DNA from: an uncultured Acidobacteriaceae bacterium
GTDB lineage: Bacteria > Acidobacteriota > Terriglobia > Terriglobales > Acidobacteriaceae
Assembly: GCA_963702295.1 (NCBI GenBank)
Contig: CAVPCE010000087.1
Location: 6,619 to 70,618, forward strand
Direction of reading: 5' to 3'
DNA: 64,000 bases
The notes under the pieces were generated by a model. It was given only the letters and a program-made list of their open reading frames with translations, made no database searches and had not been told where the DNA came from. Below are positions 1 through 23,147 of the stretch, in pieces. The number at the start of each line of letters is the position of its first letter. Position 1 is the stretch's first letter. Both the position numbers and the translations under genes were made by a program.

Positions 1-197
1 GCAGTCTGCTCATCACCGTCCGACGTCCACCTTACGATCCCGACTGGGTCGCCAAGGTTGTCGAAGCGCTCGACCGCCGATGGGTCGCGTCAGAACGCAT
101 GGACGCCGCAGTCCTGAGCCAAGCAGGTTGCGACTGACGGCTGGACTGAAGGCGGGCCGTACGCGCGGCTCTTCCAGGGTTCGTCAGTCACGCGTGA

Positions 198-2090
198 TTA
201 ATCGAACCGCGTTTCCGAAACGCCAGCCGCTTCGAGGACCTCACACAAGTCCGCGATTCCCTGCTGGCCGCCGCGGTAGTCGCATTGCGTGAAGATGACC
301 CGTTGGGCCGCACGCGACAGACCAACAAAGAAAGTCGCCGTTGATGCCTCGGTGTCACCCGCGTGTGACCACCACTGGTCGTCGTCGAGACCAAGGAAGA
401 ACACTGTGTGGTACTCGAGCCCCTTGCTTCGATGGATGGTCAGCAGTGGGACTGCCTCGGCGGCTTCGTACGCGTCGACGGCGCCTAGCCACGATGACTG
501 ACCCTCGCAGGCCGCTTCCAGCCGCTTGTCGAATGCCTCGTTCCGCATGGTGAGATCGCCTGCGGTGTCGACCATGTTGCGGTGCCGGCCGTCCGTCACG
601 GTGTCGACAAGCTCGTTCAGTCGACTTGATAACTCACCAACGGCCTTGGCGTCGCAGGGGTATTCGCGGAGCCACCGTCGAAGTTCCCGCACGTTTGACG
701 ACAGGTCGTCGTCCATGCGGGCCGAGTGGGCTCCGTCGTGGCTGTCGCCCAATCGGACAGTCGCGATCGTCGACGATACGTCGATCCACGTCTGCGGGTC
801 ACCACCCTGCCTGGGCACTGCGGCCCCAAGGCGCAGGATGCCAACCAGCAGCTGGCAGTAGGGGTCTTTGAGGATGTCTTGCAATTTCATCTTGCCGTAT
901 TCGGCGTCATCATTGCGAAGGTCGATACTGTGCGCGGCCAAGGCGTTGCGAAAGATGTCTTCGAACTCAGCGACCTTTTGCCGGGCGACGAGGGCGTACT
1001 GCGAAGGTGACCGGTTCGATGCAGCGGCGTCCGCGGCGATGAAGGCGGCGACGACCTCCACTTCCCGCCGCGCGTTCGCGAATGACCAGATTTTGGCCGG
1101 CTCATCGTCGATATCCGACACCGCCTTGGCGACCGCCATTTTGGTCGCCGGATCGAGGAGGCGTGCAAATTGGTACTGCAACTTAACGAGTGCCTCGGTC
1201 GAGCGATAGTTCCGCTCCAGTGCATACGGAATCGCGCGGAAGTCAGCTTCGAATTCAGCGAAGGCGTCCGAGAGGGCGCCAGCCCAACCCATGATGCGTT
1301 GCTTGCGGTCCCCGACCGCCGTGACCGTCGTCGTACTGCCGAATACCGACCGAAGGAAGGTGTACTGGGCGAAGGTCGTGTCCTGAAACTCGTCAACAAA
1401 CACAAACGGGTAGGTGGCAACAAGCGCTCGCTGAAGCCGCGGACTCGAGCTAATGATCAACTTGGCCAAACGGTTTAGCATGACGAACTCAACGTATGGG
1501 GTCTGTTTGCCCAGATAGGTGCGTTCCCACCACTTCTGCACCGCGTAGTCTTTCACCGCTGCCGGCGACGACGGCTCGGGAGCGAGTTCATACGGCCCCA
1601 GGATCGTCGACATGAACGTCTTTCGTGGGAGAGCGTCGATGGCGTATCGAAGATCATCCGGAGCCGTTGACGCCAGCTCGGTGAGAAATGCTTCGACGTC
1701 TTTGGGGTACACATAGCGAATCTCGTAGTCGCCGTACATCTTCCAGTACGGCGGCAACAGGGTGGCGAACCGGTCGACGATATGCTTCGTAAAGGCGTCG
1801 AACGTCATCGAGGCGAATCGGCCCGCCTGCTCTGGCGTGCGCTTCCGTACCCGCCGCCGAAGGTTGTACGCCGCATCACGTTTGAACGAGATCGCGAGAA
1901 TGCGTCGCGGTGCCGGGCACAGGCCCGTCTCAAGCAAGTAGCTGGCGCGTTGCGCCAGAAACTCCGTCTTGCCAGCGCCGGGCCCAGCGGTCACGCACGT
2001 CGACCGCTTGTCCCTCAGTGCCTGCCAGGCAGCGGGCTCAAGCTCGTCAATACCCCTGGGCTGCCACAGCTCCGGCGGGACCCTTTTCAT
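198..2090 (-). CDS. gajB: UvrD/Rep-family SF1 helicase, GajB-like partner of the upstream OLD nuclease
   Basis: Translation shows Walker A AGPGAGKTEF, motif II FVFVDEFQDTT and motif VI LLTIHRSKGLEYHTVFF. Start set at ATG 2090 (MKRVPPELW), which overlaps the upstream stop as ATGA (2087-2090). The 48 extra codons of the 198..2234 track ORF lie inside the upstream gene. Confidence 0.85.
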   Translation of the reverse strand: MKRVPPELWQPRGIDELEPAAWQALRDKRSTCVTAGPGAGKTEFLAQRASYLLETGLCPAPRRILAISFKRDAAYNLRRRVRKRTPEQAGRFASMTFDAFTKHIVDRFATLLPPYWKMYGDYEIRYVYPKDVEAFLTELASTAPDDLRYAIDALPRKTFMSTILGPYELAPEPSSPAAVKDYAVQKWWERTYLGKQTPYVEFVMLNRLAKLIISSSPRLQRALVATYPFVFVDEFQDTTFAQYTFLRSVFGSTTTVTAVGDRKQRIMGWAGALSDAFAEFEADFRAIPYALERNYRSTEALVKLQYQFARLLDPATKMAVAKAVSDIDDEPAKIWSFANARREVEVVAAFIAADAAASNRSPSQYALVARQKVAEFEDIFRNALAAHSIDLRNDDAEYGKMKLQDILKDPYCQLLVGILRLGAAVPRQGGDPQTWIDVSSTIATVRLGDSHDGAHSARMDDDLSSNVRELRRWLREYPCDAKAVGELSSRLNELVDTVTDGRHRNMVDTAGDLTMRNEAFDKRLEAACEGQSSWLGAVDAYEAAEAVPLLTIHRSKGLEYHTVFFLGLDDDQWWSHAGDTEASTATFFVGLSRAAQRVIFTQCDYRGGQQGIADLCEVLEAAGVSETRFD

Positions 2091-4039
2091 GGCAGGGTGA
2101 GAGCGTCTTTGATGGCGTCGATAAGTTGAGCAAGCGCTCGTGGCGGTGCAGCAAGCTTGTCGACCGGTACGGTTGTCAACGCGCGCAGATGCGTCGCGGG
2201 TTTGGAGCGGTTCGAAAATAGGTACCGGTACCACGACAGGAAGGGCTTCCTTTCCGGCGTTGTCCAGTATGCAATCGATGGTGGTTTACTACCAAGAACC
2301 GCTGGCGCTGGATCGGATTCGAGGTCGGGACCCGTCGCTCTCTCATCCAAATTCTTGGTGTAGTAGTCGAAATACTTATCCAGCAGCGACATATCGAGGT
2401 CAAGGGGCGTCGAGAAGAAGACGTCCCAGGTACGGAGATACTCGATCCATTTCTTGATCTCCTCGGTGCTGATTTCTTCATGAAGGTCATCGAGCGTCTC
2501 GTAGCCGTCGATGTCAGCGAAGGGATCTGCGCCGAAGTCTTGCAGTTGTTGACATACCGTCTTGATTCTGCCGATACCGCCGCCGTTGCGCCCCCAGTCG
2601 AGATCGAGCAGAGTTGCGTGGGGTATCTGCAGGCTCCTCACAAGACGCCAGAAGTAGTTAGTGTGTCGGCCGCCCAGCGGCACGATGGCGACGAACGACC
2701 GGTCGATCGGCAATCCCTTGGCTTGAGCGATCAGCGGAATAACGAGCTCCTCCGAATCACCTTCGCACAGAACAACATAGCGCGCAAAATAGAGCTCTGG
2801 GTGGGCCCGCACCGCCTGGCGGACATATTTGCCAGCTTCGGTGGCGCCCTCCGGCAACGCGATCTGCGAGATGCTGCTTGTGCCCTGCGCGAGGTCGAGT
2901 CGCAGGTAGCGAACCTGGTCCGGCTCGACACGGGCCAACGCGCTCGCCGAGTGACTCGACAGTATGGATTGCGTCCGCGATGCGCTGGTCAATTCCATCA
3001 GCTGCGACACAACGCGGGACAGGAAGAACGGCGACAGGTGGTTCTCTGGTTCCTCGATCGCGAGCGTGGTCAGCGACGGCAGGCTGGAGGCTTCGATTTC
3101 GAACTCATCGGCGCGCTTCCCAGCGATGAGATCGTTTTCAAGGTCAATCGCCGCAGCCGTGAGCGCCAAATGCAGAAGCGACCGTTGGCCGTCACTGAGC
3201 GCGGTGGCCGTGGTCCTGCGGCCGGTGTGTGTCGGCTCGAACAGTAACTCCGCGTTGCGGAAGATCTCGCCGACGTCGTGTTGTAATGGCGCGAGGGTGG
3301 GGACCGCTTCGGTGCCGGCGTGATGCAGTTGCTGCCACCGCGCGCTGAGCGCCTTCTCCACCGCCGAAACGACAGATTCTGCCTGAAACTTCTCGACAAG
3401 TTCGTCTGCCGTTTTGACCAGGTGGTCCTGCAGTTCGGAGGACCAACGGCTTGCGCGCCACAGTCGTCCGCGCAGAAACGTTGTGACGTGTCGAGCACCG
3501 TCTCGAGATGCTGGTAGGTAGATCACCTGAATGCGGTTGCGATCGCGGGGCTGTAGCACCGACCACTTCTCACCGTAGTCGGCGTCGAAGGTATGGACCA
3601 CGCGCCGCGCATCCTCGATGTAGCCGTCGACCGAGCCGTCGTCGGTCCATGTCGCCTCGAGTACGAAGCGGCATTTGAGGTGACCATCCTCCGTTGCCGC
3701 CATTTGGTGGAAAAACTCCGGGACGCTGTCACTGGCGGCCAGTGACTCAGGGTCCTTCTCGTCGGCGTTGTCCAATTCGGGAAACGCCAGAATCACGTCG
3801 ACCGTCAGCGATCGAGTCGATGGGGGCTCCTCTTCCCCGGCGGGCACGTGGAAGTCGTCGATGCGTACAAGGCGCTGATCCTGTGTGACGCCGAACATCC
3901 GGAGTAGTGCCTGGCAGACAGCTGTTTTTCCAGATCCGTTGCCGCCGATGAGCGCCGTCAGTTGTGGGTCCAGATCGATGTGGGTCGGCTGAGGTCCGAA
4001 ACAGCGAAAATTGTTCAGTGTGACGCGTTCAATGAACAT
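2087..4039 (-). CDS. gajA: OLD-family ATP-dependent endonuclease (ABC-type ATPase plus C-terminal TOPRIM), GajA-like
   Basis: MFIERVTLNNFRCFGP...LIGGNGSGKTA (Walker A), LSDGQRSLLHLAL (signature-like), LAIEEPENHLSP (Walker B). TOPRIM-like VVLCEGDSEELVIP ... LLDLDWG follows. Start taken at ATG 4039, 7 codons inside the track ORF. Confidence 0.85.
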   Translation of the reverse strand: MFIERVTLNNFRCFGPQPTHIDLDPQLTALIGGNGSGKTAVCQALLRMFGVTQDQRLVRIDDFHVPAGEEEPPSTRSLTVDVILAFPELDNADEKDPESLAASDSVPEFFHQMAATEDGHLKCRFVLEATWTDDGSVDGYIEDARRVVHTFDADYGEKWSVLQPRDRNRIQVIYLPASRDGARHVTTFLRGRLWRASRWSSELQDHLVKTADELVEKFQAESVVSAVEKALSARWQQLHHAGTEAVPTLAPLQHDVGEIFRNAELLFEPTHTGRRTTATALSDGQRSLLHLALTAAAIDLENDLIAGKRADEFEIEASSLPSLTTLAIEEPENHLSPFFLSRVVSQLMELTSASRTQSILSSHSASALARVEPDQVRYLRLDLAQGTSSISQIALPEGATEAGKYVRQAVRAHPELYFARYVVLCEGDSEELVIPLIAQAKGLPIDRSFVAIVPLGGRHTNYFWRLVRSLQIPHATLLDLDWGRNGGGIGRIKTVCQQLQDFGADPFADIDGYETLDDLHEEISTEEIKKWIEYLRTWDVFFSTPLDLDMSLLDKYFDYYTKNLDERATGPDLESDPAPAVLGSKPPSIAYWTTPERKPFLSWYRYLFSNRSKPATHLRALTTVPVDKLAAPPRALAQLIDAIKDALTLP

Positions 4040-4419
4040 TGAAGGGGCTCCCCCGAGCATGCACAGGATGCGTCGTCAACACCATAGGCGTCAGGCTGGC
4101 CGGGCCGAGGCAATATTTGCCCACTCGGCGTGCCGCGTTCGGCGAACTCGCGTTCTCTCGATGGTCCAGCCGGGGTGCTCCCCGGTAGTGCACGCCTGAC
4201 GACAAGACATCAGGGTTGCAAAGGAAATACTTACCCAGGCGGTCCACGGTGGGACGCGGGCATCGACGGTGCGGATAAAACGCAGAGTCTGCGAGGATCC
4301 AGGTAACCTGCGTTCTCTCGCGAGCCTCTGTCGTACGAGGCAGCGTGCCACCGCGATACGACTTCTCTGGAGATGGGAGTTGTTGCGCCGACCGCTTGGC
4401 CTTGCCATAAAACGCCATG

Positions 4420-4794
4420 TCAGGCGTTGGTCTCTCGTCGGTTCTGGCCTGCACTCTCCGTACTCTCCGTACTCTCCGTTGCGTGCTGGCTCTGACGCTC
4501 CAACTCGCGCCAGTTCGGCACGAGGGCAGTCATCATCGCCTTGAATTGCTTGCCGTGGCCGCGGTACTTGAGGTGCAGGAGCTCGTGGACGATGACGTAG
4601 TCCTGAAAGTCCTCATCCTCTGTAGAGAGGTCCTCGGCCAAGGTGACAACGCCATCGGGCGCGCACGAGCCCCACTTGCCTGGTAGCCGCCTGATCCGGA
4701 CCTGCTCGGGGTTGACCTTAAGCCTGACCGCCCAGGCCATAGCGCGGCGACGGAGCTGCTGCTCGGGATAAAGCGAAGAGCGACCCATTCTCAC
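4420..4794 (-). CDS. short DUF45/YgjP-like HExxH metal-dependent hydrolase (commonly linked to type I R-M)
   Basis: GKWGSC...[19 protein letters not shown]...VPNWRE matches the YgjP/DUF45 core. The start (GTG 4794 or ATG 4788) overlaps the hsdR stop at 4791-4793. The C-terminal TESTESTES is encoded by a 3 x 9-bp tandem repeat ACTCTCCGT at 4453-4479. Confidence 0.7.
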
Positions 4795-7728
4795 CCAGCC
4801 TGCTCCAGGACCTGCATGATCCGCTCGATGACGGCCGCGCGGTCATCCTTGCCGAGCGCCAGGAGCGGCTTGTAGAGGCCTGCACGCAGGCGACGCTTCT
4901 CGTCGGGGTTCTCCCGCCAGCTCGGGAACTTGGCAAGCACCGTCTCAATCTCACGCGAGGCGGCCATCCCGTCGAATGACGCTGCCTTTGCTCCGCCGTC
5001 CTGGCTGATCACCCAGTAGATGGCGAAGCCGAGGTCGCTGAGGCCACTCTCCTTAGCCGTCTTCTTGGCTTCAGCCTTCTCCTTGACCAACGTCTCGAGC
5101 TCGACCATGGCAGCGATGCCGTTGATCTTGCGGTCTTCGAGGTTTTGCATGACCCGGTCAGCCCGGTCCTTGATGTTCTGCAGCACCACAGCACCGGCCG
5201 GGTCCTCGTCCATCTCCTTCCTGAGCCCACGGAGCAAGTTGTAGACCTTGCCCTCGTCCGGACCCTCTTCGCCCTTGAGCTGCTCCAGCGTCTCAACGTC
5301 GAAGTCGACGACCTTGGAGAAACGGCCCAGGCCCTCCTGAGTGGCGCTGTCCTCAATGAGCTTGCGCGTCTTGTGCTCCAAGTCGCCGAGGAAGCTCCCG
5401 GACTCGGTGTAGTTGGCACGCACGGCGGCGTAGAGCTTGGACAGGTTCTTGTACGTCTGGATGTGATCGCGCAGGCCGGGATCCGGCGACAGGATCTCCC
5501 AGAGCGCCTCGATGTCCTTGTACGTCTCATAGAAGACCTTGCGCGCAGCGGGGTCGATGAACCGACCGAAGACCGCGGCCTCAAGCTGAGCATCGGGAGT
5601 CTTCGAGCCATCGGCCTGGAGGTACTCGGCGGCCGCCGCGGTGATCTTCTGGTGCACGTCGACCATGAGGATGTCGAGATCCTCCAGCGCACCCTTAACG
5701 GCGTCCGCGTCGAAGGTCAGCGCCTTCTTCATGTCTTCGAGGACGCCAACGAAGTCCACAACCAGACCGACCTTCTTGCTGACGTTCTCGCTGTCGATGT
5801 ACGGCCGGTTGACCCGAGCCAGCGACTGGAGCAGCACATGGTTACGCATCGGCTTATCCAGGTACATGGCGTAGAGCACCGGAGCGTCATAGCCGGTGAG
5901 TAGCTTGTCGGTGACGATCAGGATCTTCGGCTCCTGGTCGGCCTTCTTGAAGAGCTTGCGGACCTCCTCCTCGCGCGTCTCGGAGATTTGGAGCTCGGCC
6001 ACGGCCGGCCGGTCGACGATGTCGTTGACGTTCTTCGAATAGACGACCTCCGACCACTCTGGCGGCAGGTACTTGTCGAGCGCCAGCTTGTACTTGGCGC
6101 AGGTCGCGCGGTCGACGGCCACCACGAATGCCTTGTAGCCCAGCGGCAGGACGTTCTCTTTGAAGTGTTCGGAGACAAACTTGGCGACCTGGTCGACGCG
6201 GTCCGCTGCCCCGAGGAATGCCCGTAGGGTGACGGCCCGCTCAAGCACACGGTTGAGCTCTTCGACGTCGGTGACGTCCTCTTCGCCGGCCAGGGCATAG
6301 AACTGCTCTTCGAGATCCTTGGCCGGCAGACGCATGCTCGACGGGGCGAGCTTGTATCGGATCGGGAGAGTCGTCTCGTCCTCGATCGACTCGATGATCG
6401 AGTACTTGTCGAGGAAGCCGTCTTCGTCGTCCCGACCAAAGATCTTGAACGAGCCGGAGCCTGCCTTGGAGTCGCCGACAGGCGTGCCCGTGAAGCCGAT
6501 GAGCGTGGCGTTGGGGACGGCAGCCATGAGGTAGGTCCCGAGGTCGACCGCGACCGAGCGGTGCGCCTCGTCGATGAAGACGTAGATGTTGTCCCGTAAG
6601 GAGCTGTTAGCTCCTGATCTCTTCGAACTTGTGGATCATCGAGACGATCAGGCCGCGCCGATCAGAGTCGAAGATGTCCTGAAGGCCGGCCTTGCTCTCG
6701 GCTCGCTCGACGTGGATGTCGGCGGCCTGCATCTCACCCAGCAGGCGGTCCACCCAACCCTTGAGCTGCCCCTCCAGCTCGTTGCGGTCAACGACCAGGA
6801 TGACTGTGGCGTTGTTAAAGCGCGCCTTGTCCTCGAGGATCTGCCGGGCAGCGGTCAGCAGCGTGAAGGTCTTGCCCGATCCCTGGGTATGCCAGATGAG
6901 ACCCCGGTTCTTTTCGGAATCGGCGCAGCGCGCGACGATCTTGTCGATGGCCTTGCGCTGGTGCTCGCGCAGGACCGACTTCCTCGTCTCGGAGTCTTCG
7001 ACATAGAAGAGGATCCAGTCCTTGAGCGTGCGCAGAAAGGCGTGCGGCTCGAAGAACGCCTCGACGGCGCTCTTGTAGCTCTCGTCTTGGGCGTACTTCC
7101 ATTTGAAGATGAAGCGCCGAGAGACGTTCCAGGTGACGCCGTACCAGTACCCCAGCATGTGGGTGACGTTGTAGAGCTGGGTCTGCGCGAGAAGCTCAGG
7201 CGTCTCCTGCTGGTAGCGGCGGAGCTGCGTGATGCCGCGCGTCAGGGCGTCGCCAGACGTCGGGTTCTTGTGCTCGACGATGGTCACCGGCAGGCCGTTG
7301 ACCAGGAAGATGACGTCGGCGCGGTTGCCCTTTCGGGCTACCGGCTCGATCTTCCACTCCCAGGTGACCTGGAGCTCGTTGTTGTCCGGGTCCTCGAAGT
7401 CGATGAGCTGGACGGTACGGCTGAGCTTTTCGTTCTCGTCGTACCACTTGTGCTCGCCGCGCATCCAGCGCAGGACTTCCCAGTTGCCCTCGATGGTCGC
7501 AGGCAGCGCCTCGATGGTCTCGACAATGGCTCGCGCCTGGTCAGGCGTCAGCCACGAGTTGAAGTCACGCAGCTTGTCCTCAAGCACAGAAGTGAACAGC
7601 ATGTTCTCGCGCCCGTGCCGCAGTACCTCAGCATCAACAGGCTCAACGATGTCCCAGCCGACCCCATGCGCATGGGCGACCATGGGGAACTGTGCCGTAC
7701 GCGCCTCGCTGATCTTGAGCGTGGTCAT
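4791..7728 (-). pseudogene. hsdR: type I restriction enzyme R subunit (HsdR), one frame change as assembled
   Basis: The N-terminal piece 6607..7728 carries motif I ([16 protein letters not shown]). The C-terminal piece (4791..6527, open further upstream in that frame) reads [13 protein letters not shown] (DEAH box), TLIGFTGTP and the helicase-C and C-terminal regions. The two are contiguous fragments of one HsdR, with the frame shifting by 1 nt near 6,600. ATG 7728 overlaps the hsdS stop (ATGA). Confidence 0.85.
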
Positions 7729-8938
7729 GCGGTCACCATTTCCAGCGACTCGTCCGCGACCGAGAGGGCGGTGAGGTCAAGATCGTCGAGGCTGAGCTCC
7801 TCGGACACCATCTGACGGGTCATTGCGTGATGCAGTTCCTCGAGGACACCTAGACGCTTGTGGTGCAAGTTGATCTTCTGGTCGATGGTCTCGAAGAGAC
7901 TAACAATTTCCTCCTGCTCCTCGCGGCTCGGCGGAAGCGGGAGCGGCAAGCCCTCGATTGTGCTGGTGTTGAGGTTGTACTTGCCGTCGGCGGCCGGCGT
8001 CGCCCTGCCGGCAATCAGGGCGGTCCCCGCGGGCGAGCCATAGAAGTAGGCAACGTAGCGCGGATCGACAGCTGGCTTTAGACGAGCCCGGATCAGGTAG
8101 GACGCGAAGAGCGCCCCGCGCGGTTCCTGCTCGTACACCGCGCAGGCACCGAGGCGCTCAAGCACGCCGTTAGTGCGGATGAAGAGCAAGTCACCCGGCT
8201 CAAGGAGGTAGCGCGCTGCGCTGGTCTCCGACAGGTCGGCGTACTTCAAGTCAGCCGGATTGACGTGGCCCGGCTGAATGTTCGGGATGCGCAGAACCGG
8301 ATAGCGGCGCTCCTCAACGGTGCAGTGAATAGACGTCCCGTACTGCAGCCACTCGCGAACCTCGGCGAAGTCGACGACTGACCAGCTCTTAGGCAGCGGT
8401 CCGAGAGCCGTTTCCGTGACCGTCTCGCCACGCAGTCCCCGAGCGAAGAGCTCGCCGGCGGCAGCACGGAGCAGCTCCTCGGCGTTAGCCAGGGCCAGAC
8501 GCTCAAGCTCAATGGCGTCCGACACGCAATCAAGCACCCGTGCGATCTGGTCTTGAATGCCGCGAGGCGGCATCCGAACAGCGATCGAGTAGACGTCGTT
8601 GCGGTTCAGGCCTGGGACAGCGCTGTGGCTGTTGAGGCCAGTGAGACCACAACTGCTCAGCAGGTAGTAGAGGTACCGCCAGTTGTGGTCGCCTTTGTCG
8701 ACTACGTAGTAGGTCGTGTCGATCGGCCAGAACGCCTCCGCCGAGAAAGCAAGAGCGCCAACCGAACCCTTCCGTCCGACCACGACGCCGGGGCCATCGA
8801 GGAGGGACTCGTCATGTACGCCGACAAGTCCGTTTGAACCGAACACGCCGTACTTGCCGCGCCGACGCGAGTGAGCCGGAAGCGCCTTACCGTACGCCAG
8901 CTCGATCTCATCGCCAAGCACCGTGTCGCGCCAGGCAC

Positions 8939-8942
<4 letters not shown>
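7725..8942 (-). CDS. hsdS: type I restriction-modification specificity subunit (HsdS)
   Basis: 405 aa with two target-recognition-domain halves and typical HsdS N-terminal strings ([36 protein letters not shown]). GTG start 8942 overlaps the hsdM stop (GTGA); its own stop overlaps the hsdR ATG. Confidence 0.85.
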
Positions 8943-10753
<1,811 letters not shown>

Positions 10754-10764
10754 CATTACAGATG

Positions 10765-10805
10765 TCACGTTTGCTATTTTTGTTATATCGCAAAATGTTG
10801 TCAAG
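10765..10805 (-). promoter_or_regulatory. candidate promoter/operator of the hsdM-hsdS-hsdR operon
   Basis: This is the only AT-rich tract in this GC-rich block. On the minus strand it reads CTTGACAACATTTTGCGATATAACAAAAATAGCAAACG, with TTGACA at 10799-10804 and an imperfect inverted repeat TTGCGA-N11-TAGCAA. The -10 assignment is ambiguous. Confidence 0.3.
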
Positions 10806-11246
10806 CCCCCACGCCGAACCTCTCGAAACGGCGTGGTGAACCCGCCTGGATAGCAGTAAAGAAAGTCCTCACCGCCGAGGTCAGACATCGTTTTCAGGAG
10901 TCGGTCGTGACCTGATCTGCGGGAGCGAGGGCGACTCGACGGCTGCGCTTGCTGGCACCATGCGCACGGTCATCGCTGCCCGTTGTCCGGACGGCGGAAG
11001 TTCTCCCACGGCTCACTGGTGGGCTGGTCTCGGTGGCGGGCGGCGGACGCAGGGCGCAGTGCAGCGACCGGCGCGTACGGGAGCGCTAGCGGACGGAAGC
11101 AGAGGGAGCGCAGCGGAGCCCGGAGGTAGCCGCCCGCAGGGCAGGCACGATCAGCTCGGGTGGGCGGTGAGCTGTTGGAGCGGCGCTGCGATGGCCGAGG
11201 CGGCGGGCACGCGGCGGCCATGTCGGGGGATCGCGAGAGTGAGCAT

Positions 11247-12464
11247 TTACCCGTAGAGGCGTCGCCGGAGTTCACGCAGGCCGGACAGGCGCGGGCGTCG
11301 GTTCAGGGCTTCGATGTCGTCGATGAGTTCGGCGACGCGGGGTGATTCGGCGAGCTCTTCGGCAGCGATCTGTTCGGCTTTGACCAGGGCTCGCAGTGCG
11401 TCACGGCCGGAACGTGTCAGCAGGTGAGCGCGGGCCATGTCGACCAGGTAGCGGGCCTGGCGTTCGGGTGAGAGCTGCTCGGCGTGGCGGACATGTGCGG
11501 CGCGGTCGAGGGCTTGTTGTCCGTTGCCGAGTTCGACCGCGACACCCACGGCGTGCATAGCCACGTTGGTGGGTCCGAATTCGGTGTCGTGGTGGTTGCG
11601 GTCGTCGCCCAGCACGGCGGCGAGCCGGCGTGCCACCATCAGGCACTGCTCGGCGGAATCGGTGTTGGCGTCACGGGCGTGCAAAATCGCCAACAGCAGC
11701 GCGCTGGAGCCCACGAGTGAGATCAGGCCGTGATCGCCGCCGGCGATGATGGCTTCATGTCGTTGGGTTGCTTGGGTTAAGACGTGGCGGGCCAGTGCTT
11801 GTTCGCTGGAGTCGAGCAGGGTGCGGGCCATGCGCAGTTGACCGGCCAGGATCAAAGCGGGGTCGCGGGTTCGCTCGGCGGCGGCGATGGCGCGGTCGGC
11901 GGCGACCCATCCCGCACCACGGTCACCGACTTTGACCAGCATCGCCGCGGCGGCTTGATAGGTCTGGGCAAGCAGCGAAAGAAGTTCGGGGCGTTGGGTT
12001 TTCGCGGCGGTGCGGCTGGCGTTTTCCAGCTCGCTGATCAGGGTGGCGATTGCTGGTCCCATGTCGCGGTAGGCGCTGGCGTGGATGCGCTCCCAGACGT
12101 GCAGGGTGCGCTGTCGCAGTGATTCCAGATCGCAGGCAGGGCCATCGGCTACTGGTGTGATGATGCTGTCTGGAGCAGGGTGTCCGGCGATGGCCAGACG
12201 AAGCTGCTCCACGTAGGGCCGGTTGCGGGCGGTCTCAGCGTCGGGTCCAAGGGTAGCTTCGATGAACTCCGGGAGCGGCGCGCCGAGCACTGCGGCCAGC
12301 CGTTGTATGACGGTGAGGTCGATCAGTCGTATTTCGCCGCGTTCGATCTGGGCGACCCAACTGGCCGATCTGTGCATTTGGTCGGCCAGGCGCTTGCGCG
12401 ACCAGTTCTTTTCTTCTCGGTAGTTACGAACCAGGTCGCCGGGTGTGGGGTCAGCGCGGGGCAC
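11247..12464 (-). CDS. XRE-family HTH transcriptional regulator with long helical/TPR-like C-terminal domain
   Basis: The N-terminus reads LVRNYREEKNWSRKRLADQMHRSASWVAQIERGEIRLIDLTVIQRLAAVLG (Cro/C1-type HTH), followed by about 330 aa of Ala/Leu-rich helical repeats. Start set at GTG 12464, because the longer track ORF (to 12851) overlaps a better-supported ABM gene in another frame. Confidence 0.75.
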   Translation of the reverse strand: MPRADPTPGDLVRNYREEKNWSRKRLADQMHRSASWVAQIERGEIRLIDLTVIQRLAAVLGAPLPEFIEATLGPDAETARNRPYVEQLRLAIAGHPAPDSIITPVADGPACDLESLRQRTLHVWERIHASAYRDMGPAIATLISELENASRTAAKTQRPELLSLLAQTYQAAAAMLVKVGDRGAGWVAADRAIAAAERTRDPALILAGQLRMARTLLDSSEQALARHVLTQATQRHEAIIAGGDHGLISLVGSSALLLAILHARDANTDSAEQCLMVARRLAAVLGDDRNHHDTEFGPTNVAMHAVGVAVELGNGQQALDRAAHVRHAEQLSPERQARYLVDMARAHLLTRSGRDALRALVKAEQIAAEELAESPRVAELIDDIEALNRRPRLSGLRELRRRLYG

Positions 12465-12786
12465 CGTCGCCTCGAAGGGGCTGCCCGTTGATCGCACCGA
12501 CAGTGGGCGCAAGTGTCCACACCTCAGGTGGGTGGGCCAGGTGTTGAGTCCGTTCGGTGAGGAACCGGCAAGTGTGCGGCGCGTCTTCGTGCGCTTGGAA
12601 CGCGTCGTGGCTTCGGTAGCACTCGTAGAACACCCGCAAGCTGGGCTCCTCGGCCGCGGTGTGGCTGGCATAAACGATCGTGTCGGGTTCGTCGGTAGTG
12701 ATCGCGGCCAATGTTTGGGCGACGAGTGCGTCGAAGGCGTCCTCGTGTCCTGGGCGGACGCTGAACCTGACCAGCAGTGCGAACAT
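12451..12786 (-). CDS. antibiotic-biosynthesis-monooxygenase (ABM) domain protein
   Basis: 111 aa: MFALLVRFSVRPGHEDAFDALV...DEPDTIVYASH...LRVFYECYRSHDAFQAHEDAPH, the typical ABM/YgiN-like ferredoxin-fold pattern. Confidence 0.7.
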   Translation of the reverse strand: MFALLVRFSVRPGHEDAFDALVAQTLAAITTDEPDTIVYASHTAAEEPSLRVFYECYRSHDAFQAHEDAPHTCRFLTERTQHLAHPPEVWTLAPTVGAINGQPLRGDGAPR

Positions 12787-13038
12787 CTCACCCCCACCTG
12801 CGACACGGCCCCGGCGCGCTGTTGTCGTTCTCGTGTGCGCGGTTGCCGCACACCCTACCCGGCTGCCTCGTTGGCGGCGTTGACAAGACGCGCAGGCACT
12901 GGCGGGGTCGGCGGCAAAGCCGTGAATCCACGTCCGGCGGTGCGGAGCAGCGCACAGTTTTGCACACCCGGGCTGTGTGTTTTAGTCCGCCGTTGGTGGC
13001 CGCGGCTGGTGTCGGGCTGCACTGGGTGATGCAGGCGT

Positions 13039-13392
13039 TCAATTAACATCTGCAAAAGCTTGCCCCGCAGTTTGCAATGCATGCTGTATCAGCGCCGATA
13101 GGTGATCGCACGCGGCACTATTGGTTGCTGGATAGTCCATCTCCGTCCAGACTATCCAGCCATCCTTTCGGCAAAGGGGCGATAACGAACGTAACAGATG
13201 AGGGTAGGTTAGCGGTGTACGTTTGGCAGCAAGAAAGCGCAGGTGGATAAGATCAAACATATTTGACCTGGGCATCTTCTTCGTCAAGATGTTCCAGATT
13301 TTGCAGCACTGCAGTTGCATTGCTTCCCTCCACCAATGCCTGTGCTTGATCTATACCATATGCCTGATCATCAATGCCGATAATACCCAGGC
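13039..13392. other. low-GC (about 48%) junction patch between the two blocks
   Basis: GC counted in 60-nt lines is 45-53%, against roughly 60-70% on both flanks. The minus strand carries a truncated ORF end (...RLGIIGIDDQAYGIDQAQALVEGSNATAVLQNLEHLDEEDAQVKYV*, stop at 13253) and an overlapping 73-codon ORF (13039..13260). Neither is recognisable to me. Confidence 0.6.
13128..13159. repeat. perfect 10-bp inverted repeat CTGGATAGTC-N12-GACTATCCAG
   Basis: Read directly from the sequence: arms at 13128-13137 and 13150-13159, inside the low-GC patch. Confidence 0.9.
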
Positions 13393-13399
13393 GCGGGTG

Positions 13400-15019
13400 A
13401 CGCCACGCCATATCGCCACCGGCACCTACGTCTTCACCGGCCTCTTCACCCAGCAGCCGGGGACCAACAGCACCGGCAACTCCGGCCAGAACGGCTTCGC
13501 GCTCAGCGGCTCCTCGCTCGCCGACTTCCTCCTCGGCCTGCCCCAGGAAACCACCCTCCAGGCCGCGTATCAGGAATCGCACCTCCGCCAGAACGAAATT
13601 GACTTCTTCGGCCAGGACGACTGGCGCGCCCGCGCGAATCTGACTTTTCTTTTCGGACTTCGCTACGATTACGACTCGCCCTACTCGGAAGAGAACGATC
13701 GCCTCGCCACCCTCGATGCCGGCAACGACTTCGCCACCGTCGCCACAGTCGTCTCCAACGGCGTCGGCCCCTTTACTGGCAAGTATCCCCGCGACCTCAT
13801 CTATCCCGAGAAGAACAATTTCTCCCCGCGCGTGGGCTTCGCGTGGCACCCCCTCAAAGACACCGTCCTCCGCGGCGGCTATGGCATCAACTACACCGTC
13901 GGTCAGTACTCCAAATTCGTCCAGAACTTCGCCTTCGAGCCGCCCTTTGCCGACGTTCAGACCAACCTCTCCACCAGTGGCGCGTCCATCACGCTTGCCA
14001 ACGGCTTTCCCGCTCCGCAGACGGAAGGGAACTATTCCGTCAATAAGAACTACCGTCTCCCGTACGTGCAGGTCTGGAACCTCAACCTTCAGCGCACCAT
14101 CCCGTGGAACATCGTCTTCAACCTTGGCTACAACGGCTCCAAAGGTTCCCGCCTCGATGTCATCGATGCCCCCGGCCGCTTCGTCACAACCGTGAACGGC
14201 GTCCAGACCACCACGCTGCCCACGGCGAACAACGATCCCTCGCAAACCATCGCCTACGACTATGAGGATTCCCTCGCCTTCTCCAACTACAACGCCCTCA
14301 CCTTCAGCGCCCGCAAACGCATGAGTGGCGGCATCTCTCTCCAGGCCACTTACACGTACTCGCACTCCATCGACGACGCCAGCACTATCGGCGGCAACGG
14401 TGGAACCACCTGCGGCGGCAACTGTCTCGCCCAGAACTGGCAGAACATCCGCGCCGAGGAATCCAATTCGTCGTTCGACGTCCGCCATCTCGTGCGCGGC
14501 AGCTTTGTCTACGAACTTCCGTTCGGCCCTGACACCCACCTCCTCACCGCCGACTGGTTTGGTCACGTCCTCTCGAACATGAGCCTCTCCGGCGACTACG
14601 AATTCGCCACCGGCAACCCGCTCACCCCCCATTACGAAGCCACCGTCGAAGATGTCGCTCGCGGCACCACCGAGTCCCTCCGCCCCGACCGCGTCCCCGG
14701 TGCTTCGCTCACCGCGGGCGGCGGCAGCCTGGGCAACTGGTTCAACAAAGCCGCCTTTGCTCCACCGGCCGGCGTTTACGGATCCGCTCCACGCCTCAGC
14801 ATTCCTGGCCCCGGCACTGTCTCCTTCGATGGATCGATTTCCAAGAGCATCCGCTTCGGCGACATGAAGAACCTCGAGCTCCGCGCCACCGCCGAAAACG
14901 TTCTCAACAGCGTCCAGTACTCCGGCGTCGATACCACGCTGGGTTCCGCCACCTACGGCCAGGTCACCTCCACCTCGCCCATGCGCCAGTTCACCTTCAT
15001 GGGACGCTTCCGGTTCTAG
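13400..15019 (+). pseudogene. TonB-dependent receptor, C-terminal half only (5'-truncated at the junction)
   Basis: Homology to the two full-length paralogs in this window starts around GTYVFTGLFTQQPG...LADFLLGLPQE and runs to the C-terminal ...FTFMGRFRF*. The signal peptide, CarboxypepD_reg domain and plug are absent. The first ~60 codons of the 13223 track ORF are low-GC junk. Confidence 0.8.
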
Positions 15020-15032
15020 CCATGAAAAAAAA

Positions 15033-15170
15033 TGTCATCCTGAGCGGAGCGCCGCTACAACTCCTGCCAATGAGCGATTGCTTTCCCGGCGCGGAGTCGA
15101 ATGGACCCTCCACGCATGGCGTGGAGAATCGGTCGCGCAGCGGCCGACGGAAATCCCTCCTGTGTAGAGG
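15033..15170 (+). repeat. GTCATCCTGAGCG-family intergenic repeat, copy A
   Basis: Shares three blocks with copies B-E: head GTCATCCTGAGCGGAGCGCCGC, CCCGGCGCGGAGTCGAATGGACCC, and GGAGAATCGGTCGCGCAGCGGCCGAC. Begins 14 nt after the receptor stop codon. Confidence 0.8.
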
Positions 15171-17353
15171 ACACGCTCTTTCATTGCTGGTCCTCCTGCT
15201 CGCCGTGCCCACCTTTGCCCAGACCCAAACGCCCGTCTCCTCCCAGGACCAAACCCCGCCCGCCACCTCGCCCTTCACCCTCCGCGTCAACAGCGACCTC
15301 GTCCTCACCAACATCGTCGTCCGCGACAAAAAAACCGGCGAGATTGTGAAGGGCCTCACCGCGAAAGATTTCACTGTCACCGAGGCAGGAAAGCCGCAGC
15401 ACATCGTCAGCTTCGACTTTGAAAGCGTCGACCAGGCCGCCGCCCTCAACGAAGCTACCATCAACGCATCGGCGCCCAACGGCATCTTCGGCGCAAAGAG
15501 CGGCACCGCCACCCAGGCCGAGCTTCGCAATCACCGCCTCATTGTGATGTTCTTCGACATCACATCCATGCAGCCCGAGGACATCGAGCGCGCCCAGGAA
15601 TCCGCCCGCAACTACATCAACAAGCAGATGCACCCGGCGGATCTGGTCGCCGTCGTCTCTCTCAACGCCACGCTCTCCCTCGATCAGGACTTCACCGCCA
15701 GCAAAGATCTCCTCCTTCGCGCCGTCAACAGCTACTCCGGTACCCAGGGAGAGGGCTACGGAGAAGGCGCCACCAGCACCTCCAATCAGGTCGAAGACGC
15801 CAGCTCTTTCGCCCCTGACGAATCGGAGTACAACGACCTGAATACCGACCGCGAGCTCTATGCCATCGAGGACATCTCCCGCTCGCTCGCCTATCTCAAC
15901 GAGAAAAAATCCCTGCCTCTATTTCTCAGGAGGTATCCAGCGCGACGGCATTGAGAACCAGGCCTCGCTCCACGCCGCCATCAACGCCTCCGTCCGCGCC
16001 AACGTCTCCATCTATTCCGTCGATGCCCGCGGCCTCCAGGCCATCTCACCTCTCGGCGACGCCACCACCGGCAACCTGCGCGGCGCCAACTCTTTCAACG
16101 GCGCGGCTCTGCAGAACAACCTCGACTCCAACTTCAATACCCAGGAAGTCATGGCCAACCTCTCCTCCGACACCGGAGGCAAGGCCTTTTTCGACTCCAA
16201 CGACTTCTCGCCCGCCTTCGCCCGCATCCAGCACGACACCTCGGCTTACTACGTCCTCGGTTATCACTCCACTGACGTCCGCCGGGACGGTCGCTACCGC
16301 CGCATTTCCATCAAAGTCAATCGTTCCGACGTGAAGCTCGAATACCGCCCCGGCTACTACGCCCCCGCCGACTTCCAGCACGCCAACAAAGACGAGCGCG
16401 AGCGCCAGCTCGAAGAAGAGCTCGCCAGCGATTTGCCCGCCACCGATATCCCTGTCTTCCTCCAGGCTCTCTATTTCCGCACCGGCGACAATCGCTTCTA
16501 TGTGCCCATCTCCCTCGTCGTCCCCGGCTCGCAGATCCCCTTCGTCAAAGGTGGCGATCGCGACAAGGCCACACTCGACATCATCGGCCAGGTCCGCGAC
16601 CCTGCCGGCCATGACATCGGCGACGTTCGCGACACCGTCAAGCTCGCCGTCGATGAGTCGCAGCAGGTCCGTCAGAAAAACGTGCAGTACACCACCGGCT
16701 TCAGTCTGCCGGTCGGCAAGTACCACGTGAAATTTGTCGTCCGCGAAAACGAGACTGGCCGCGTGGGTTCCTTCGAAACCGACCTCAACGTCCCCGACCT
16801 CAAAAAGGTCCCGCTCAAAATGAGCTCGGTCCTCTTTGCCAGCCAGCGCATGCCCGCCGGCAAAAAGCAGGACAACAACCCGCTCATCCGCGACGGCCAG
16901 CAGTTTGTCCCCAATTTGCCCCACGTCTTCCGCCAGGACCAGCACCTCTACCTGCTCTACGAGGTCTACGATCCCGCAAAGGCCACGCAGGAAAAAATCG
17001 CCGACACCGGCGCTCCAAGCGCCCCCTCATCTAAGAAAGAGAAGTCCGATCCGTCCGCCGGCAAGGCCGTCCGCGTCATGACCAGCATCGAATTCCTCTC
17101 CGGCTCCGCCAAAGCCTTTGAGACGCCGCTGATCCAGGCCACACAGCTCAACGTCCCCGACCGCGATGCCGTCGCCTTCCAGTTCGATGTTCCGCTCGAC
17201 CACCTCAAGCCCGGCACCTACATCTGCCAGATCAACGTCATCGACGACGCCGGCGGCGCCTTCACCTTCCCGCGCACCGCGCTCCTCATCAAGCCCGCTC
17301 CGCAGAGCCCGCCGCCCCCGCCCGCAACCACCTCCGGGGCCGGCGGTCACTGA
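15121..17353 (+). pseudogene. VWFA-related acidobacterial-type protein (von Willebrand A domain), one frame change as assembled
   Basis: Signal-like RRKSLLCRGHALSLLVLLLAVPTFAQ, then LRVNSDLVLTNIVVRDKKTGE, RLIVMFFDITSMQ...DLVAVVSL (VWA). After a 1-nt shift near 15,916 (YLNEKKSL|LYFSGGIQ) it reads VSIYSVDARGLQA... to the end. The start is uncertain: GTG 15121 is proposed, while the track start 15022 lies inside repeat A. Confidence 0.75.
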
Positions 17354-19680: not shown

Positions 19681-19999
19681 GACGAGAACGAGCACCGATC
19701 TCTGCCAGGGAAGAGCACGGGATCGAGGCTCGGCCGAAGCCTGGCAGGCACGGCGTTGATGCGCTGTAGGCGCAGAATCAAGGAAGGAAGGCGGCTGCAG
19801 CTCCGGCGGTCTGGTATAAGGCCTCAATTGCCGGGTGCTCCATCTTTGTCGCCTCGCGTCGTTCGAGCCCACAGAGTGTGAAGTCACAAACCTCAGCCAA
19901 TCGCTTTTCGAAAGACGCCTCAGCCAGTCGCCGAGCGAAGTACCCACGCTGCGAAGCCGAACGGAGCCCGCGTCCGCCACCTCAGCCGTGGATGACTGC

Positions 20000-20100
20000 A
20001 GCCCATGTGGCCTCGTATCAGGGCACGACTTCAGTCGTGCCGGAGTATTGCCAAAAAAAGAAAGGGCTTTAGCCCCTGAGGCCTTTGGCGAGCCCGAAAC
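20000..20100. repeat. REP-like intergenic element with perfect hairpin GGCACGAC-TTCA-GTCGTGCC
   Basis: Hairpin at 20022-20041, followed by AAAGGGCTTTAGCCCCTGAGGCC (a second small hairpin). Lies between the aroF stop and the YVTN gene start. Only one copy occurs in this window. Confidence 0.5.
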
Positions 20101-20203
20101 CGTCGCACACTGTCCCTTGCATTCCACAGTCCGGTTCAGCATACACGCCAGCCGCTCCGGCGATGCCTCACTGTGCGTCCGCATTCAGGAGAAGGGAATT
20201 GCC

Positions 20204-21262
20204 CTACTTCGCGACTGCGACGTCTTCCACGTGAATCCCCCGCGGAACGCTCCGATGCAGCACGGTCGCAATCTGCGAGCACTCGTCCATCAGCTGCACG
20301 AACTGCTCCGGCAGAATCGACTGCATCCCGTCCGAGAGCGCCTTGTCTGGCTGATGATGCACTTCCACGATCAGTCCGTCCGCACCGACCGCCACGGCGG
20401 CCCGCGCCAGCGGCAGCACTTTATTCCGCTTGCCCGTCCCATGGCTCGGATCCACCAGGATCGGCAGGTGGCTCTCCCTCTGCACCGCCGGCACAATGCT
20501 CAGGTCCAGGGTGTTTCGTGTGTGATCCGCAAACGTCCGTACCCCGCGCTCGCACAGGATCACCTCGTAGTTGCCCTCGCTCATGATGTACTCGGCCGCC
20601 ATCAGGAACTCGTCCAGCGTCGCCGCCAGCCCGCGCTTCAGCAGGACGGGCTTGCGCTTCCGCCCCGCCTCCTTCAGCAGCGAAAAATTCTGCATGTTTC
20701 GCGCGCCTATCTGGATCACATCGGCGTACTCGGCCACCAGCTCCAGCGCCTCGTGGTCGATCGCCTCTGTCACGATCCGCAGCCCAAAGCGCTCCCGAAC
20801 CTCGGCCATGATTTTCAGGGCTTCCTCGCCCAGCCCCTGAAACGCGTACGGCGAAGTTCGCGGCTTGTACGCGCCGCCCCGGAAAAACTGCGCTCCGGCT
20901 GCCGCCACTTGTTCGGCGATGGCAAAAGCCTGCTCCCGCGATTCAATCGAACACGGCCCCGCAATCATCGCCAGCTCCGGACCGCCGATGGTCGCGTCCG
21001 TCCCCGGGAAGCGGATTACCGTGTCCTCTTCCTTCACGTCGCGGCTGACTAATTTGTAAGGTTTCGATACCCGGATGACCTCGGCAACGCCCGGCAATTC
21101 TTCAATGTTGCCCCGATCCACCTCGCCCTGGTTGCCGGTAATGCCAATGGCCGTCCGTTGCGCTCCCGGCATCGGATGCGCTCGATAGCCCAGCCCTTCA
21201 ATGTGCTCGCAAACCGCCTGGATCTCCTCACGGGTGGCCTGCGCCTTCATCACGACGAGCAT
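20204..21262 (-). CDS. aroF: 3-deoxy-7-phosphoheptulonate (DAHP) synthase, type I-beta with N-terminal regulatory domain
   Basis: 352 aa. The N-terminal ACT/ferredoxin-like segment ([26 protein letters not shown]) is followed by [41 protein letters not shown] and [10 protein letters not shown] motifs. Confidence 0.9.
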
Positions 21263-21392
21263 CGTCGAACCCTCACCTTCGTCAAAAACCCAGTGTAATC
21301 CATGGTTTTCGCGAAGTCGAAGAAGATGGGAAGGATACGGTTACGAAGGGAAAAACAAAAGGAAGCCGATCTGTGTCCCTAAAGGTACGGGC

Positions 21393-21488
21393 TCACTCGC
21401 CCTTGCCGGGCTGTCCGCTCCGCATCGCCACCACCGCGGGCGTCAGCACCATCGCCACATAGATCAGGACAAAGAGAAAGTCGCGCAT
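21393..21488 (-). CDS. possible 31-aa hydrophobic peptide
   Basis: MRDFLFVLIYVAMVLTPAVVAMRSGQPGKGE, preceded by GGAGGAAA about 13 nt upstream. There is no homology argument, so this is speculative. Confidence 0.25.
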   Translation of the reverse strand: MRDFLFVLIYVAMVLTPAVVAMRSGQPGKGE

Positions 21489-21734
21489 GATGAAACCGGT
21501 TTCCTCCGCGGCGCTGCTCGCCGGGTATCCATTGCCCAGTCTCCTCCGCCTTAACCCTCCTGCCAATAGCACTTCCGGACCTGGCGTGCCCCGCATGGGG
21601 CAGAATCCAGTTGTTAACCCTTCAATCCACAGTGTTTAAAAATTTCCGCTGCCACGCAACTTTCCCGCGCCCCTCAGGGTCCATACAAGCGTGAGAGGCC
21701 CCGGCGGGCCTTCCACACAGCAACTCTCCTCGGA

Positions 21735-21781
21735 CAACGAGGCCTCCCACGCTGTATCGGTCGGCCTCGTTGATTTTTTTT
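21735..21781 (+). terminator. intrinsic terminator oriented for the plus strand
   Basis: 10-bp stem CAACGAGGCC (21735-21744) / GGCCTCGTTG (21763-21772), followed by A + T8 (21773-21781). On the minus strand the hairpin has no U-tract. Confidence 0.65.
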
Positions 21782-21787
21782 GTCCGC

Positions 21788-23147
21788 CTATTTCGCCGGA
21801 TCCACCAGTGCCCCATAAACGGCCGCATGGCTGCGATACAGCAGGCTGTGATTGTCCGGATGCAGCATCCGCTGGATCATCCCCACAAACACCACATCGT
21901 TCGTCGGATCCACCCAGAACCACGTCCCCGCCGCTCCATCCCAGAAGAACGTCCCCTTGCCATCCGGCAGCCCCGCTTCGCCCGGATCGAATACCACCGC
22001 GCAATTAAAGCCGTATCCAAATCCCGGCCGCATTACGTGCTGCCCGATACCCCACTCGCCTGTCAGCAAACTCGCCGGCAATTTATTGGTCGTCATCAGC
22101 CGCACCGTTGCCGGAGACAGAATCCGCTGTCCGTTCAGTTCACCGCCATTCGCCAGCATCTGCGCAAAGCGGTAGTAGTCCATCGGAGTCGAGACCAGGC
22201 CGCCTCCACCCGAAGGCATCGTCGGCTCCTTCTCAAAATCCTGTGGCGCCCCGCCCTCCGGTTCACGGGTACGATCCCGCCATCTGCCTGCCCGTTGCCC
22301 TTGTAGTTCGTTGCAAACCGTGCCCGCTTGTCTGCCGGCACGTAGAACCCCGCATCCTTCATTCCCAGCGGCGCAAAAATGTGTTCCCGATCGAAGTCCG
22401 GCAGCGTCTGTCCCGACAGCTTCTCGACGATGGCCCCCTCCACATCCATCGACGCCGAATACAGCCACTCTTTGCCCGGCTGATAGTTCAGTGGGATCTT
22501 CGCCAGCTTGTCGATGAACTCCTGCAGGTTCTCCGACTGCATCACGTGTTCCTGCTGGTACATCGCGTCCACCACGGTTTTCCCATTGCCATACGAGAAG
22601 CCCGCCGTGTGCGACATCAGCTCCCGCATCGTCGGCGCATGATCCGGATCCACCAGGACCATCTGCCCATCCTTGTCCACTCCGTCAAAAACCTTGAGGT
22701 GAGCGAACTCCGGAAGGTACTTCGCGATCGGATCCTGCGGCTGCCACTTGCCCTCCTCGTAAAGGATCATCATCGCCACACCCGTCGTCGGCTTCGTCAT
22801 CGAGTAGTCGCGGAAGATCGTATCCTTCGTCATCGCCGTGCCCGCCGCCATGTCCCGCATCCCATACGTCCGGTAATCGACGATCTTTCCGTGCCGCGCC
22901 AGGATCGTCACCGCCCCGGCCAGTTGCTTCTGGTCAATCTCTCCCTGGATCAGTGCGTGCAGTCGCTCCAGCCGCTCGCTGGAAAATCCCATCGATTCCG
23001 GCGTTGCTGTCGCCTCTGCAGTTGCCCCATCGGACTTCTGCGTTACCCGGCTCTCCTTTTTCCCTCTCGGACCCCCTGACGCGCTGTTCGCCAGACAGCC
23101 GCCAAAGCCGCTACAGCCAGAACCCGCACCATTGCAACTCTCTTCAT
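21788..23147 (-). pseudogene. serine hydrolase / beta-lactamase-family protein, two frame changes as assembled
   Basis: Signal/lipobox-like MKRVAMVRVLAVAALAA. A shift occurs near 23,090, after which the sequence reads SMGFSSERLERLH...DTIFRDYSMTKP (SxxK). A second shift near 22,27x is followed by LVSTPMDYYRFAQMLANGGELNG...FFWDGAAGTWFWVDP. Confidence 0.8.

Follow-up and report, generated by a model that had tools for sequence, protein, structure and literature searches.

A probable chimeric mis-join of three unrelated DNA segments in a contig of an uncultured Acidobacteriaceae bacterium

Blunt joins that enclose filler DNA are known products of end joining. A comparable picture can arise outside the cell: chimeric reads, some of them interspecies or multi-segment, are reported to account for 1.7-8.2% of Oxford Nanopore Technologies (ONT) reads (PMC10025935). 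The locus studied here has to be compared with both, and also with the borders of integrative elements and defence islands. It lies in a 64,000-bp stretch (hereafter the window) of contig CAVPCE010000087.1, assembly GCA_963702295.1, attributed to an uncultured Acidobacteriaceae bacterium. In this window, a cluster of bacterial defence genes is followed by a short low-GC patch and then by the 3' part of a gene for a TonB-dependent-type outer-membrane receptor. Sequence comparison indicates that the window is probably a chimeric contig, a mis-join of three unrelated molecules produced as a library or assembly artefact. We put the probability of this reading at about 0.8.

Breakpoints and origins of the three segments

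Two breakpoints, 13032/13033 and 13415/13416, divide the window into three unrelated segments, named A, B and C (Table 1). A preliminary description of the region had reported an abrupt junction, a low-GC patch and a change in gene content, all of which are borne out, with sharpened coordinates. It had also described genes as being cut on both sides of a single point. The cut genes are indeed present, but they are distributed over two breakpoints and three segments. Left-side genes comprise GajA and GajB, hsdR, hsdS and hsdM, an open reading frame (ORF) of 124 aa, an XRE-TPR regulator and ABM, while genes of Acidobacteriaceae occupy the right side. Assignment of taxonomy to each flank, as the preliminary description had advised, gave Mycobacterium sp./Actinomycetota on the left and Acidobacteriaceae on the right.

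Affiliation of segment A is indicated by several of its sequences. Its ABM protein is 89% identical to WP_442380700.1, annotated as a putative quinol monooxygenase of Mycobacterium sp., and belongs to the same 90% cluster. A Mycobacterium lentiflavum plasmid shows 70% DNA identity to window positions 1152-4012, and all plasmid records that match the XRE-TPR regulator (76/76) come from Actinomycetota. The exact ABM protein was found in addition on a 2,245-bp Logan contig (L001, run ERR10755948). L001 is 100% identical to window positions 11340-13032 over 1693 bp with no gap, and it departs from the window at 13033 without a single shared base; the DNA that follows in L001 has 65% GC and starts with GTCCAACAACACC. 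A 113-aa protein encoded ~50 bp past the breakpoint (L001 positions 162-503, minus strand) matches the NCBIfam SCO3933 family (E = 5e-22), its 78.1 bits falling slightly short of the 80-bit cut-off. The family takes its name from a Streptomyces coelicolor locus and is typical of actinomycete integrative elements. Because L001 carries on into a gene of the SCO3933 family, segment A has a coherent native continuation other than segment B. This hints that the Mycobacterium-like defence cluster may natively border an actinomycete integrative element, although int, xis, rep and tra genes were found neither in the window nor in the 2.2 kb of L001.

For the exact ABM protein of segment A and for the exact DAHP synthase of segment C, the longest carrying contig on record has 71,275 bp in each case and is available from NCBI and ENA. 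The simplest reading is that both genes share one deposited contig, 64,000 bp of which correspond to the window. The part of this contig outside the window then cannot exceed 7.3 kb, which limits segment A to no more than ~20 kb and places it at or near the contig end. No acidobacterial DNA has been shown on the far (left) side of segment A.

On the opposite side of the junctions, the receptor gene is truncated at its 5' end with about half of it missing, as had been described. The ORF at 13223-15019 matches, from its residue 62, Pfam OMP_b-brl_4 only at profile positions 317-837 of 838. Lacking a start, signal peptide, CarboxypepD_reg domain and plug, the fragment does not represent an intact receptor. 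An intact paralog located in the same window (56908-60876) contains CarboxypepD_reg and barrel positions 2-836. The fragment was scanned against one genome per GTDB species and 47 loci were returned. The best of them, in an Acidobacteriaceae metagenome-assembled genome (L002, DASRRO010000030.1), is 96% identical at the amino-acid and 92% at the DNA level over L002 residues 653-1186. In L002 the receptor gene runs through 1186 codons (8045-11605) without interruption, and the break falls after codon ~652, so that ~55% of the gene is missing in the window by comparison.

DNA homology of this locus and of five further ones (L003, L004, L005, L006 and L007) to the window begins exactly at 13416 (CCACCGGCACC; CCACCGGCACCTACG). 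Left of 13416, the window sequence shows no relation to the receptor sequence that is conserved in these six Acidobacteriaceae loci. To the right, the window is collinear with L002, L003, L005, L006 and L007 for >10 kb. To the left of the break, 10 kb are conserved and collinear among these five relatives (81-87% identity), and no match to this upstream DNA, including the 652 codons of the receptor 5' half, exists anywhere in the 64-kb window. Members of the DAHP synthase cluster are also named Acidobacteriaceae bacterium. The preliminary description held that finding both flanks contiguous in related genomes would argue against a chimera and an island alike; in the relatives examined the flanks are not contiguous.

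The intervening segment B (383 bp, 13033-13415) is composed of A/C/G/T = 94/99/95/95. Its GC content of 0.507 differs from the window mean of 0.623 (z = -3.75), and the lowest-GC 383-bp frame of the whole 64 kb begins at 13007. A value of ~48% GC had been given for the patch; its low GC is confirmed, but the average is 50.7%, and 46-47% is reached only at 13200-13349. Segment B corresponds to about residues 82-208 of a class I S-adenosylmethionine (SAM) methyltransferase of ~300 aa, cut at both ends and frameshifted. In tblastn comparisons the homology extends over two reading frames, -2 over 13414-13283 (~47 residues, EMAWxHP..GID..AY.I.QAQ) and -3 over 13257-13042 (the following 72 residues), with E ~1e-24 to 1e-26 for the two-frame matches. 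According to our reading, spacing to the conserved FDLxHLRF motif matches that of homologues once one base near 13262-13272 is removed, which indicates a 1-nt insertion there. A TGA stop at 13039-13041 has no equivalent in homologues.

Homology of segment B opens at 13414, which means that the SAM-binding motif I (GxGxG) is cut off, and it closes at the TGA, a few bases from 13033. With motif I and the C-terminal region absent, one frameshift and a premature stop, the segment does not encode a complete methyltransferase. An apparent 'GAGG' motif at 13416-13427 is receptor sequence and stands three codons out of register. A minus-strand ORF had been described in the patch as cut at ~13,392-13,411; its truncation is confirmed, but the ORF makes up part of a single frameshifted piece of a methyltransferase gene, which ends abruptly on both sides. 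A phmmer search with the 93-aa minus-strand ORF in 1.84 billion representative proteins gave 99 matches at E <= 0.001, the best being 53% and 51% identical. Nearly all of these matches are 250-330 aa long and are aligned at internal positions ~116-190. In a Pfam scan of six homologues, Methyltransf_25/31/11 was detected above the cut-off in five and only below it in the sixth. The nearest relative of segment B is only about 53-55% identical. At the protein level, nothing above 30-55% identity was found in contigs of the Joint Genome Institute (JGI) or in a collection of 5.8 billion protein clusters, and one exact 30-mer of the segment is absent from JGI metagenome contigs. The clusters of the best homologues yielded no taxonomy. 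The source organism of segment B is apparently not assembled anywhere public.

Other identities considered for segment B were rejected. No blastn match was obtained in phages, E. coli genomes or plasmids, which argues against a vector, phage control DNA or an E. coli contaminant. The four bases are used uniformly, but a random or synthetic spacer is ruled out by the encoded methyltransferase fragment and by a dinucleotide usage that is biased, relative to single-base frequencies, in the manner of natural DNA (p = 0.003). A toxin-antitoxin pair could be suspected from two small minus-strand ORFs that overlap. They gave no Pfam, NCBIfam or viral match and represent one frameshifted gene.

Differences among the segments extend to base composition. 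Every 2-kb block on the left has a higher GC skew than any block on the right (-0.03 to +0.10 compared with -0.26 to -0.09; Mann-Whitney p = 2.7e-6). Tetranucleotide profiles set positions 1-12000 apart from 16000-64000. GC content at third codon positions (GC3) is 0.71-0.76 in genes of segment A, 0.43-0.47 in segment B and 0.80-0.83 in genes of segment C. The compositional comparison of flanks called for in the preliminary description has in this way revealed differences in tetranucleotides, GC3 and skew. The restriction of repeats and acidobacterial genes to the right of the junction, stated there as well, also holds: the repeat core GTCATCCTGAGCGRAGCG occurs in five copies on the plus strand, all from 15034 rightwards and none on the left, while 0.02 copies would be expected by chance.

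The plus strand of segment C is C-rich whatever the gene orientation, as illustrated by third codon positions that are 66% C in the plus-strand receptor gene and 52% G in the minus-strand DAHP synthase gene. This independence of orientation shows that the skew stems from strand-biased mutation of the replicon, as opposed to a coding effect. The same skew is present in L002, L003 and L005-L007, where the 10 kb upstream of the break keep values of -0.15 to -0.19, while in the window the strand skew ends at the junction.

We have also addressed the question of sequence signatures that could accompany a joining event. No tRNA or tmRNA genes and no Rfam family were detected around the junction. Direct and inverted repeats around 12000-15000 are limited to short ones at chance level. 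Target duplications are lacking, as is microhomology at the A/B and B/C junctions. Integrase, recombinase and transposase genes are absent among the scanned ORFs of segment A, of which each sizeable one was assigned to GajA/B, HsdR/S/M, the XRE regulator or ABM; the 124-aa ORF, scanned only against PADLOC, gave no match there and shows no recombinase features by eye. A chimera of the de Bruijn type, formed through a shared k-mer, was judged unlikely, given that in our translation the last 30 nt of segment A do not recognisably extend the methyltransferase frame.

Origin of the junctions

According to the favoured reading, a terminal piece (<=20 kb) of a Mycobacterium-like genome, carrying the Gabija and type I restriction-modification cluster, would have been joined end to end with foreign DNA. 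A 383-bp internal methyltransferase scrap, probably from a rare organism of ~50% GC, would have been placed between the flanks, and a segment of an Acidobacteriaceae chromosome starting in the middle of the receptor gene would form the right part. The join may have been made when one or a few multi-segment chimeric long reads linked the ends of two contigs during an error-prone long-read assembly. The sequence comparisons demonstrate three origins, exact breakpoints and diverging native continuations of A and C, while we infer both the read-level mechanism and the sequencing platform. This route would explain segment B as a short, error-bearing and unpolished piece of an otherwise unassembled organism. 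Most likely, no biological event took place at 13033-13415, and the receptor would appear truncated only because the acidobacterial fragment begins there.

This reading is based on the fact that segments A and C each continue differently, and coherently, in independent assemblies. It is further based on flanks that belong to different phyla with segment B as a third source, on a skew that ends at the join, on the lack of a mobility signature, on the terminal position of segment A, and on indels in all three segments. Several features expected of a chimera were observed: the flanks have continuations of their own from the exact breakpoints, taxonomy changes between them, and the step in composition, codon usage and skew has no counterpart in relatives. 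The preliminary description had proposed either a misassembly or an island border. Of the two, misassembly is favoured here, but the third unrelated fragment between the flanks had been missed.

Several points weigh against a mis-join. The join has been judged from sequence comparison, and it may have physical support in reads. The 1693 bp common to L001 and the window do not contain any error, and some of the frameshifts may be real pseudogenes, not sequencing errors. No ONT, PacBio or Nextera adapter motif was seen by eye at either junction. In principle, segment B might natively adjoin either A or C, since its native flanks were not recovered. Defence islands are known to move horizontally, and their borders can hold gene remnants. 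Finally, a short-read de Bruijn assembler cannot join sequences without shared k-mers. If the contig stems from such an assembly, a homology-free join needs real spanning reads, and this would favour a real junction.

In that case weight would be gained by an alternative that we otherwise regard as unlikely, the real border of a very recent island. It would require that Mycobacterium-derived Gabija and type I restriction-modification genes were end-joined inside an Acidobacteriaceae receptor gene, with the methyltransferase fragment captured as filler. A publicly deposited contig contains the junction, and the genes on its left are typical mobile defence cargo, natively located beside a gene of the type found in integrative and conjugative elements (ICEs) of actinomycetes. 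However, DNA with 100% identity to segment A over 1693 bp has a different continuation in another sample, so the transfer between phyla would have to be extremely recent. Segment A also carries no trace of the strong strand skew or codon bias of the host. As an insertion predicts, the segment is absent from five relatives, in which the locus is uninterrupted, and its composition is atypical, although a chimera accounts for this equally well. A recombinase near the border, an integrase, att site, tRNA, target duplication or repeat were not found. An insertion also leaves the absence of the receptor 5' half and of a conserved 8-kb upstream block from the window to be explained, and the second border was not seen, with segment A lying at or near the contig end. 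Frameshifted genes on both sides could mean real decay, and blunt joins with filler are, as said above, established end-joining products. The event would nevertheless have to combine three pieces of unrelated phylogenetic origin with three cuts, in mid-gene or at arbitrary positions, and ligation in vitro gives the same picture more simply. If true, the locus would be a snapshot of defence-gene transfer between phyla in soil before amelioration, and a rare unameliorated example.

Another possibility, and a very improbable one, is that only one of the junctions is artificial and that segment B is a decayed foreign remnant native to either A or C. Its frameshift and premature stop resemble those of a pseudogene remnant, and neither adjacency is directly disproved as long as the native flanks of B have not been found. 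Nevertheless, L001 at 13033 and the six relatives at 13415 continue differently, and either adjacency would have to be strain-specific. In addition, segment B is cut in mid-gene at both ends and its GC3 (~0.45) is far from that of both neighbours. Least probable of all is concatenation in silico after assembly, deliberate or accidental. Clean joins without microhomology agree with it, but the records of a gene from A and a gene from C on the 71,275-bp NCBI/ENA contig indicate that the join pre-exists in public data. Segment B is moreover a piece of a gene, shows the dinucleotide bias of natural DNA and is without a close relative in public data, so it was not copied from there. A mis-join in the library or during assembly is preferred over all these alternatives.

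Genes, repeats and consensus quality

Features of the window are listed in Table 1. The Gabija pair (198-4039) is complete and forms part of the Mycobacterium-like segment, not of the acidobacterial one. An HTH domain at the N-terminus of hsdM is unusual. The start of the XRE-family regulator was taken from the gene call on L001.

Table 1. Coordinates of segments, junctions, genes and repeats in the 64,000-bp window
Feature	Position	Strand	Remarks
Segment A	1-13032		Mycobacterium-like (Actinomycetota) defence and regulatory DNA; GC 0.63, GC skew +0.04
Segment B	13033-13415	-	piece from within a class I SAM-dependent methyltransferase gene
Segment C	13416-64000		Acidobacteriaceae chromosome; GC 0.62, strand GC skew -0.18
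Junction 1 (A/B)	13032-13033		intergenic, 246 bp upstream of ABM start
Junction 2 (B/C)	13415-13416		inside receptor coding sequence
gajB	198 to about 2090	-	PADLOC GajB, E = 3.3e-189; Pfam UvrD helicase
gajA	2087-4039	-	PADLOC GajA, E = 2.9e-222; Pfam OLD-like TOPRIM and AAA_15
Type I restriction-modification locus	4420-10888	-	Pfam HSDR_N, SWI2_SNF2, T1R_D3, Methylase_S, HsdM_N and N6_Mtase over separate ORFs
Small 124-aa ORF with HELLH motif	4420-4794	-
hsdR	4791-7728	-	frameshifted near 6600
hsdS	7725-8942	-
hsdM	8939-10888	-	N-terminal HTH, two frameshifts
XRE-family HTH regulator, long C-terminal (TPR-like) region	11247-12464	-	Pfam HTH_31, HTH_3
ABM (quinol monooxygenase-like)	12451-12786	-	last gene of segment A; Pfam ABM, E = 1.3e-12
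TonB-dependent-type outer-membrane receptor gene, 3' part (~45%)	13416-15019	+
VWA-domain gene	15022-17353	+	directly downstream of receptor; broken by one extra C near 15917
GTCATCCTGAGCGRAGCG copies	15034, 34952, 35881, 37802, 39499	+	all in segment C

Every segment has conserved genes that are broken by single-base indels: hsdR and, at two sites, hsdM in segment A, the methyltransferase fragment in B, and the VWA gene and a second receptor gene in C. The hsdM gene is split into three ORFs by shifts near 9600-9636 and 9815-9891, one of which falls within a GGCGGCGG run, while the shift in hsdR is located beside the palindrome GGAGCTAACAGCTCC. The shifts in these two genes represent either pseudogenes or consensus errors. 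The VWA gene is a single ORF of 740 aa in L002, and in L006 one frame is open over the whole gene; in the window, CTGCCTC (15905-15924) stands in place of the CTG-CTC of L002 and divides the gene between frames +3 and +1.

The second TonB-type receptor gene (52956-56421, plus strand) had been listed in the preliminary description as a full-length paralog of 1,135 aa. This could not be upheld, as the gene is distributed over at least five reading-frame pieces: CarboxypepD_reg, then plug and barrel positions 1-400, followed by barrel positions 542-667, 665-751 and 767-838. The gene is either a decayed pseudogene or affected by a locally poor consensus. Nowhere else in segment C is GC as low (0.58-0.60) or the skew as weak as in this region. 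In general, the pattern of indels fits an error-prone long-read consensus, without being proof of it.

Some further observations concern segment C and its relatives. The first GTCATCCTGAGCGRAGCG copy lies 15 nt past the stop of the truncated receptor gene, and a similar sequence is located at the same intergenic position in L006. Strand skew, strong (-0.15 to -0.27) in the lineage of the window, is near zero at the same locus in L008 and L012 (~76% protein identity); replichore position or a lineage-specific mutational bias could be its cause. Window positions 19898-22408 show a mosaic identity to an independent JGI contig (L049, 3300079084). Only 5 mismatches occur over 19898-21250, with an identical DAHP synthase protein, while ~8% divergence and several small indels characterize 21250-22408. 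The pattern is suggestive of recombination between strains, with a boundary near 21250.

Implications and comparison with known systems

The outcome is mainly a result of quality control. If the contig is left unsplit, Mycobacterium genes for Gabija, type I restriction-modification and two regulators would be credited to an Acidobacteriaceae genome. The join would be counted as a textbook case of horizontal gene transfer between phyla, and the receptor gene, though sound, would enter the record as a pseudogene. We recommend splitting the contig at 13032/13033 and 13415/13416 and removing segment B. In addition, the locus illustrates how a chimera may be diagnosed without reads, by comparing exact breakpoints with independent assemblies of each flank, by the stop of a lineage-specific skew, and by a third-party scrap cut at both ends.

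Among the systems considered, junctions formed by end joining with filler DNA are similar in having a short unrelated piece between two blunt, homology-free breakpoints. They differ from the present locus, where the filler is a gene fragment of a third organism with a different GC content and the partners belong to different phyla. With the border of an ICE, an actinomycete ICE (AICE) or a defence island, the locus shares a foreign defence block beside an interrupted host gene, the absence of this block from relatives, and a putative native neighbour of the SCO3933 family. It lacks, however, an integrase or excisionase, an att site or tRNA and a target duplication, no second border is visible, and the window does not contain the remaining part of the interrupted gene. 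Unlike at such borders, actinobacterial DNA with 100% identity to the block continues otherwise, and the host skew is absent from the block. The locus behaves like an interspecies chimeric contig caused by chimeric long reads, but no adapter remnant is present at the junctions studied here. The abrupt repeat-free join, the short extra segment, cuts in mid-gene, the step in composition and taxonomy, and indels are features that the window has in common with such contigs.

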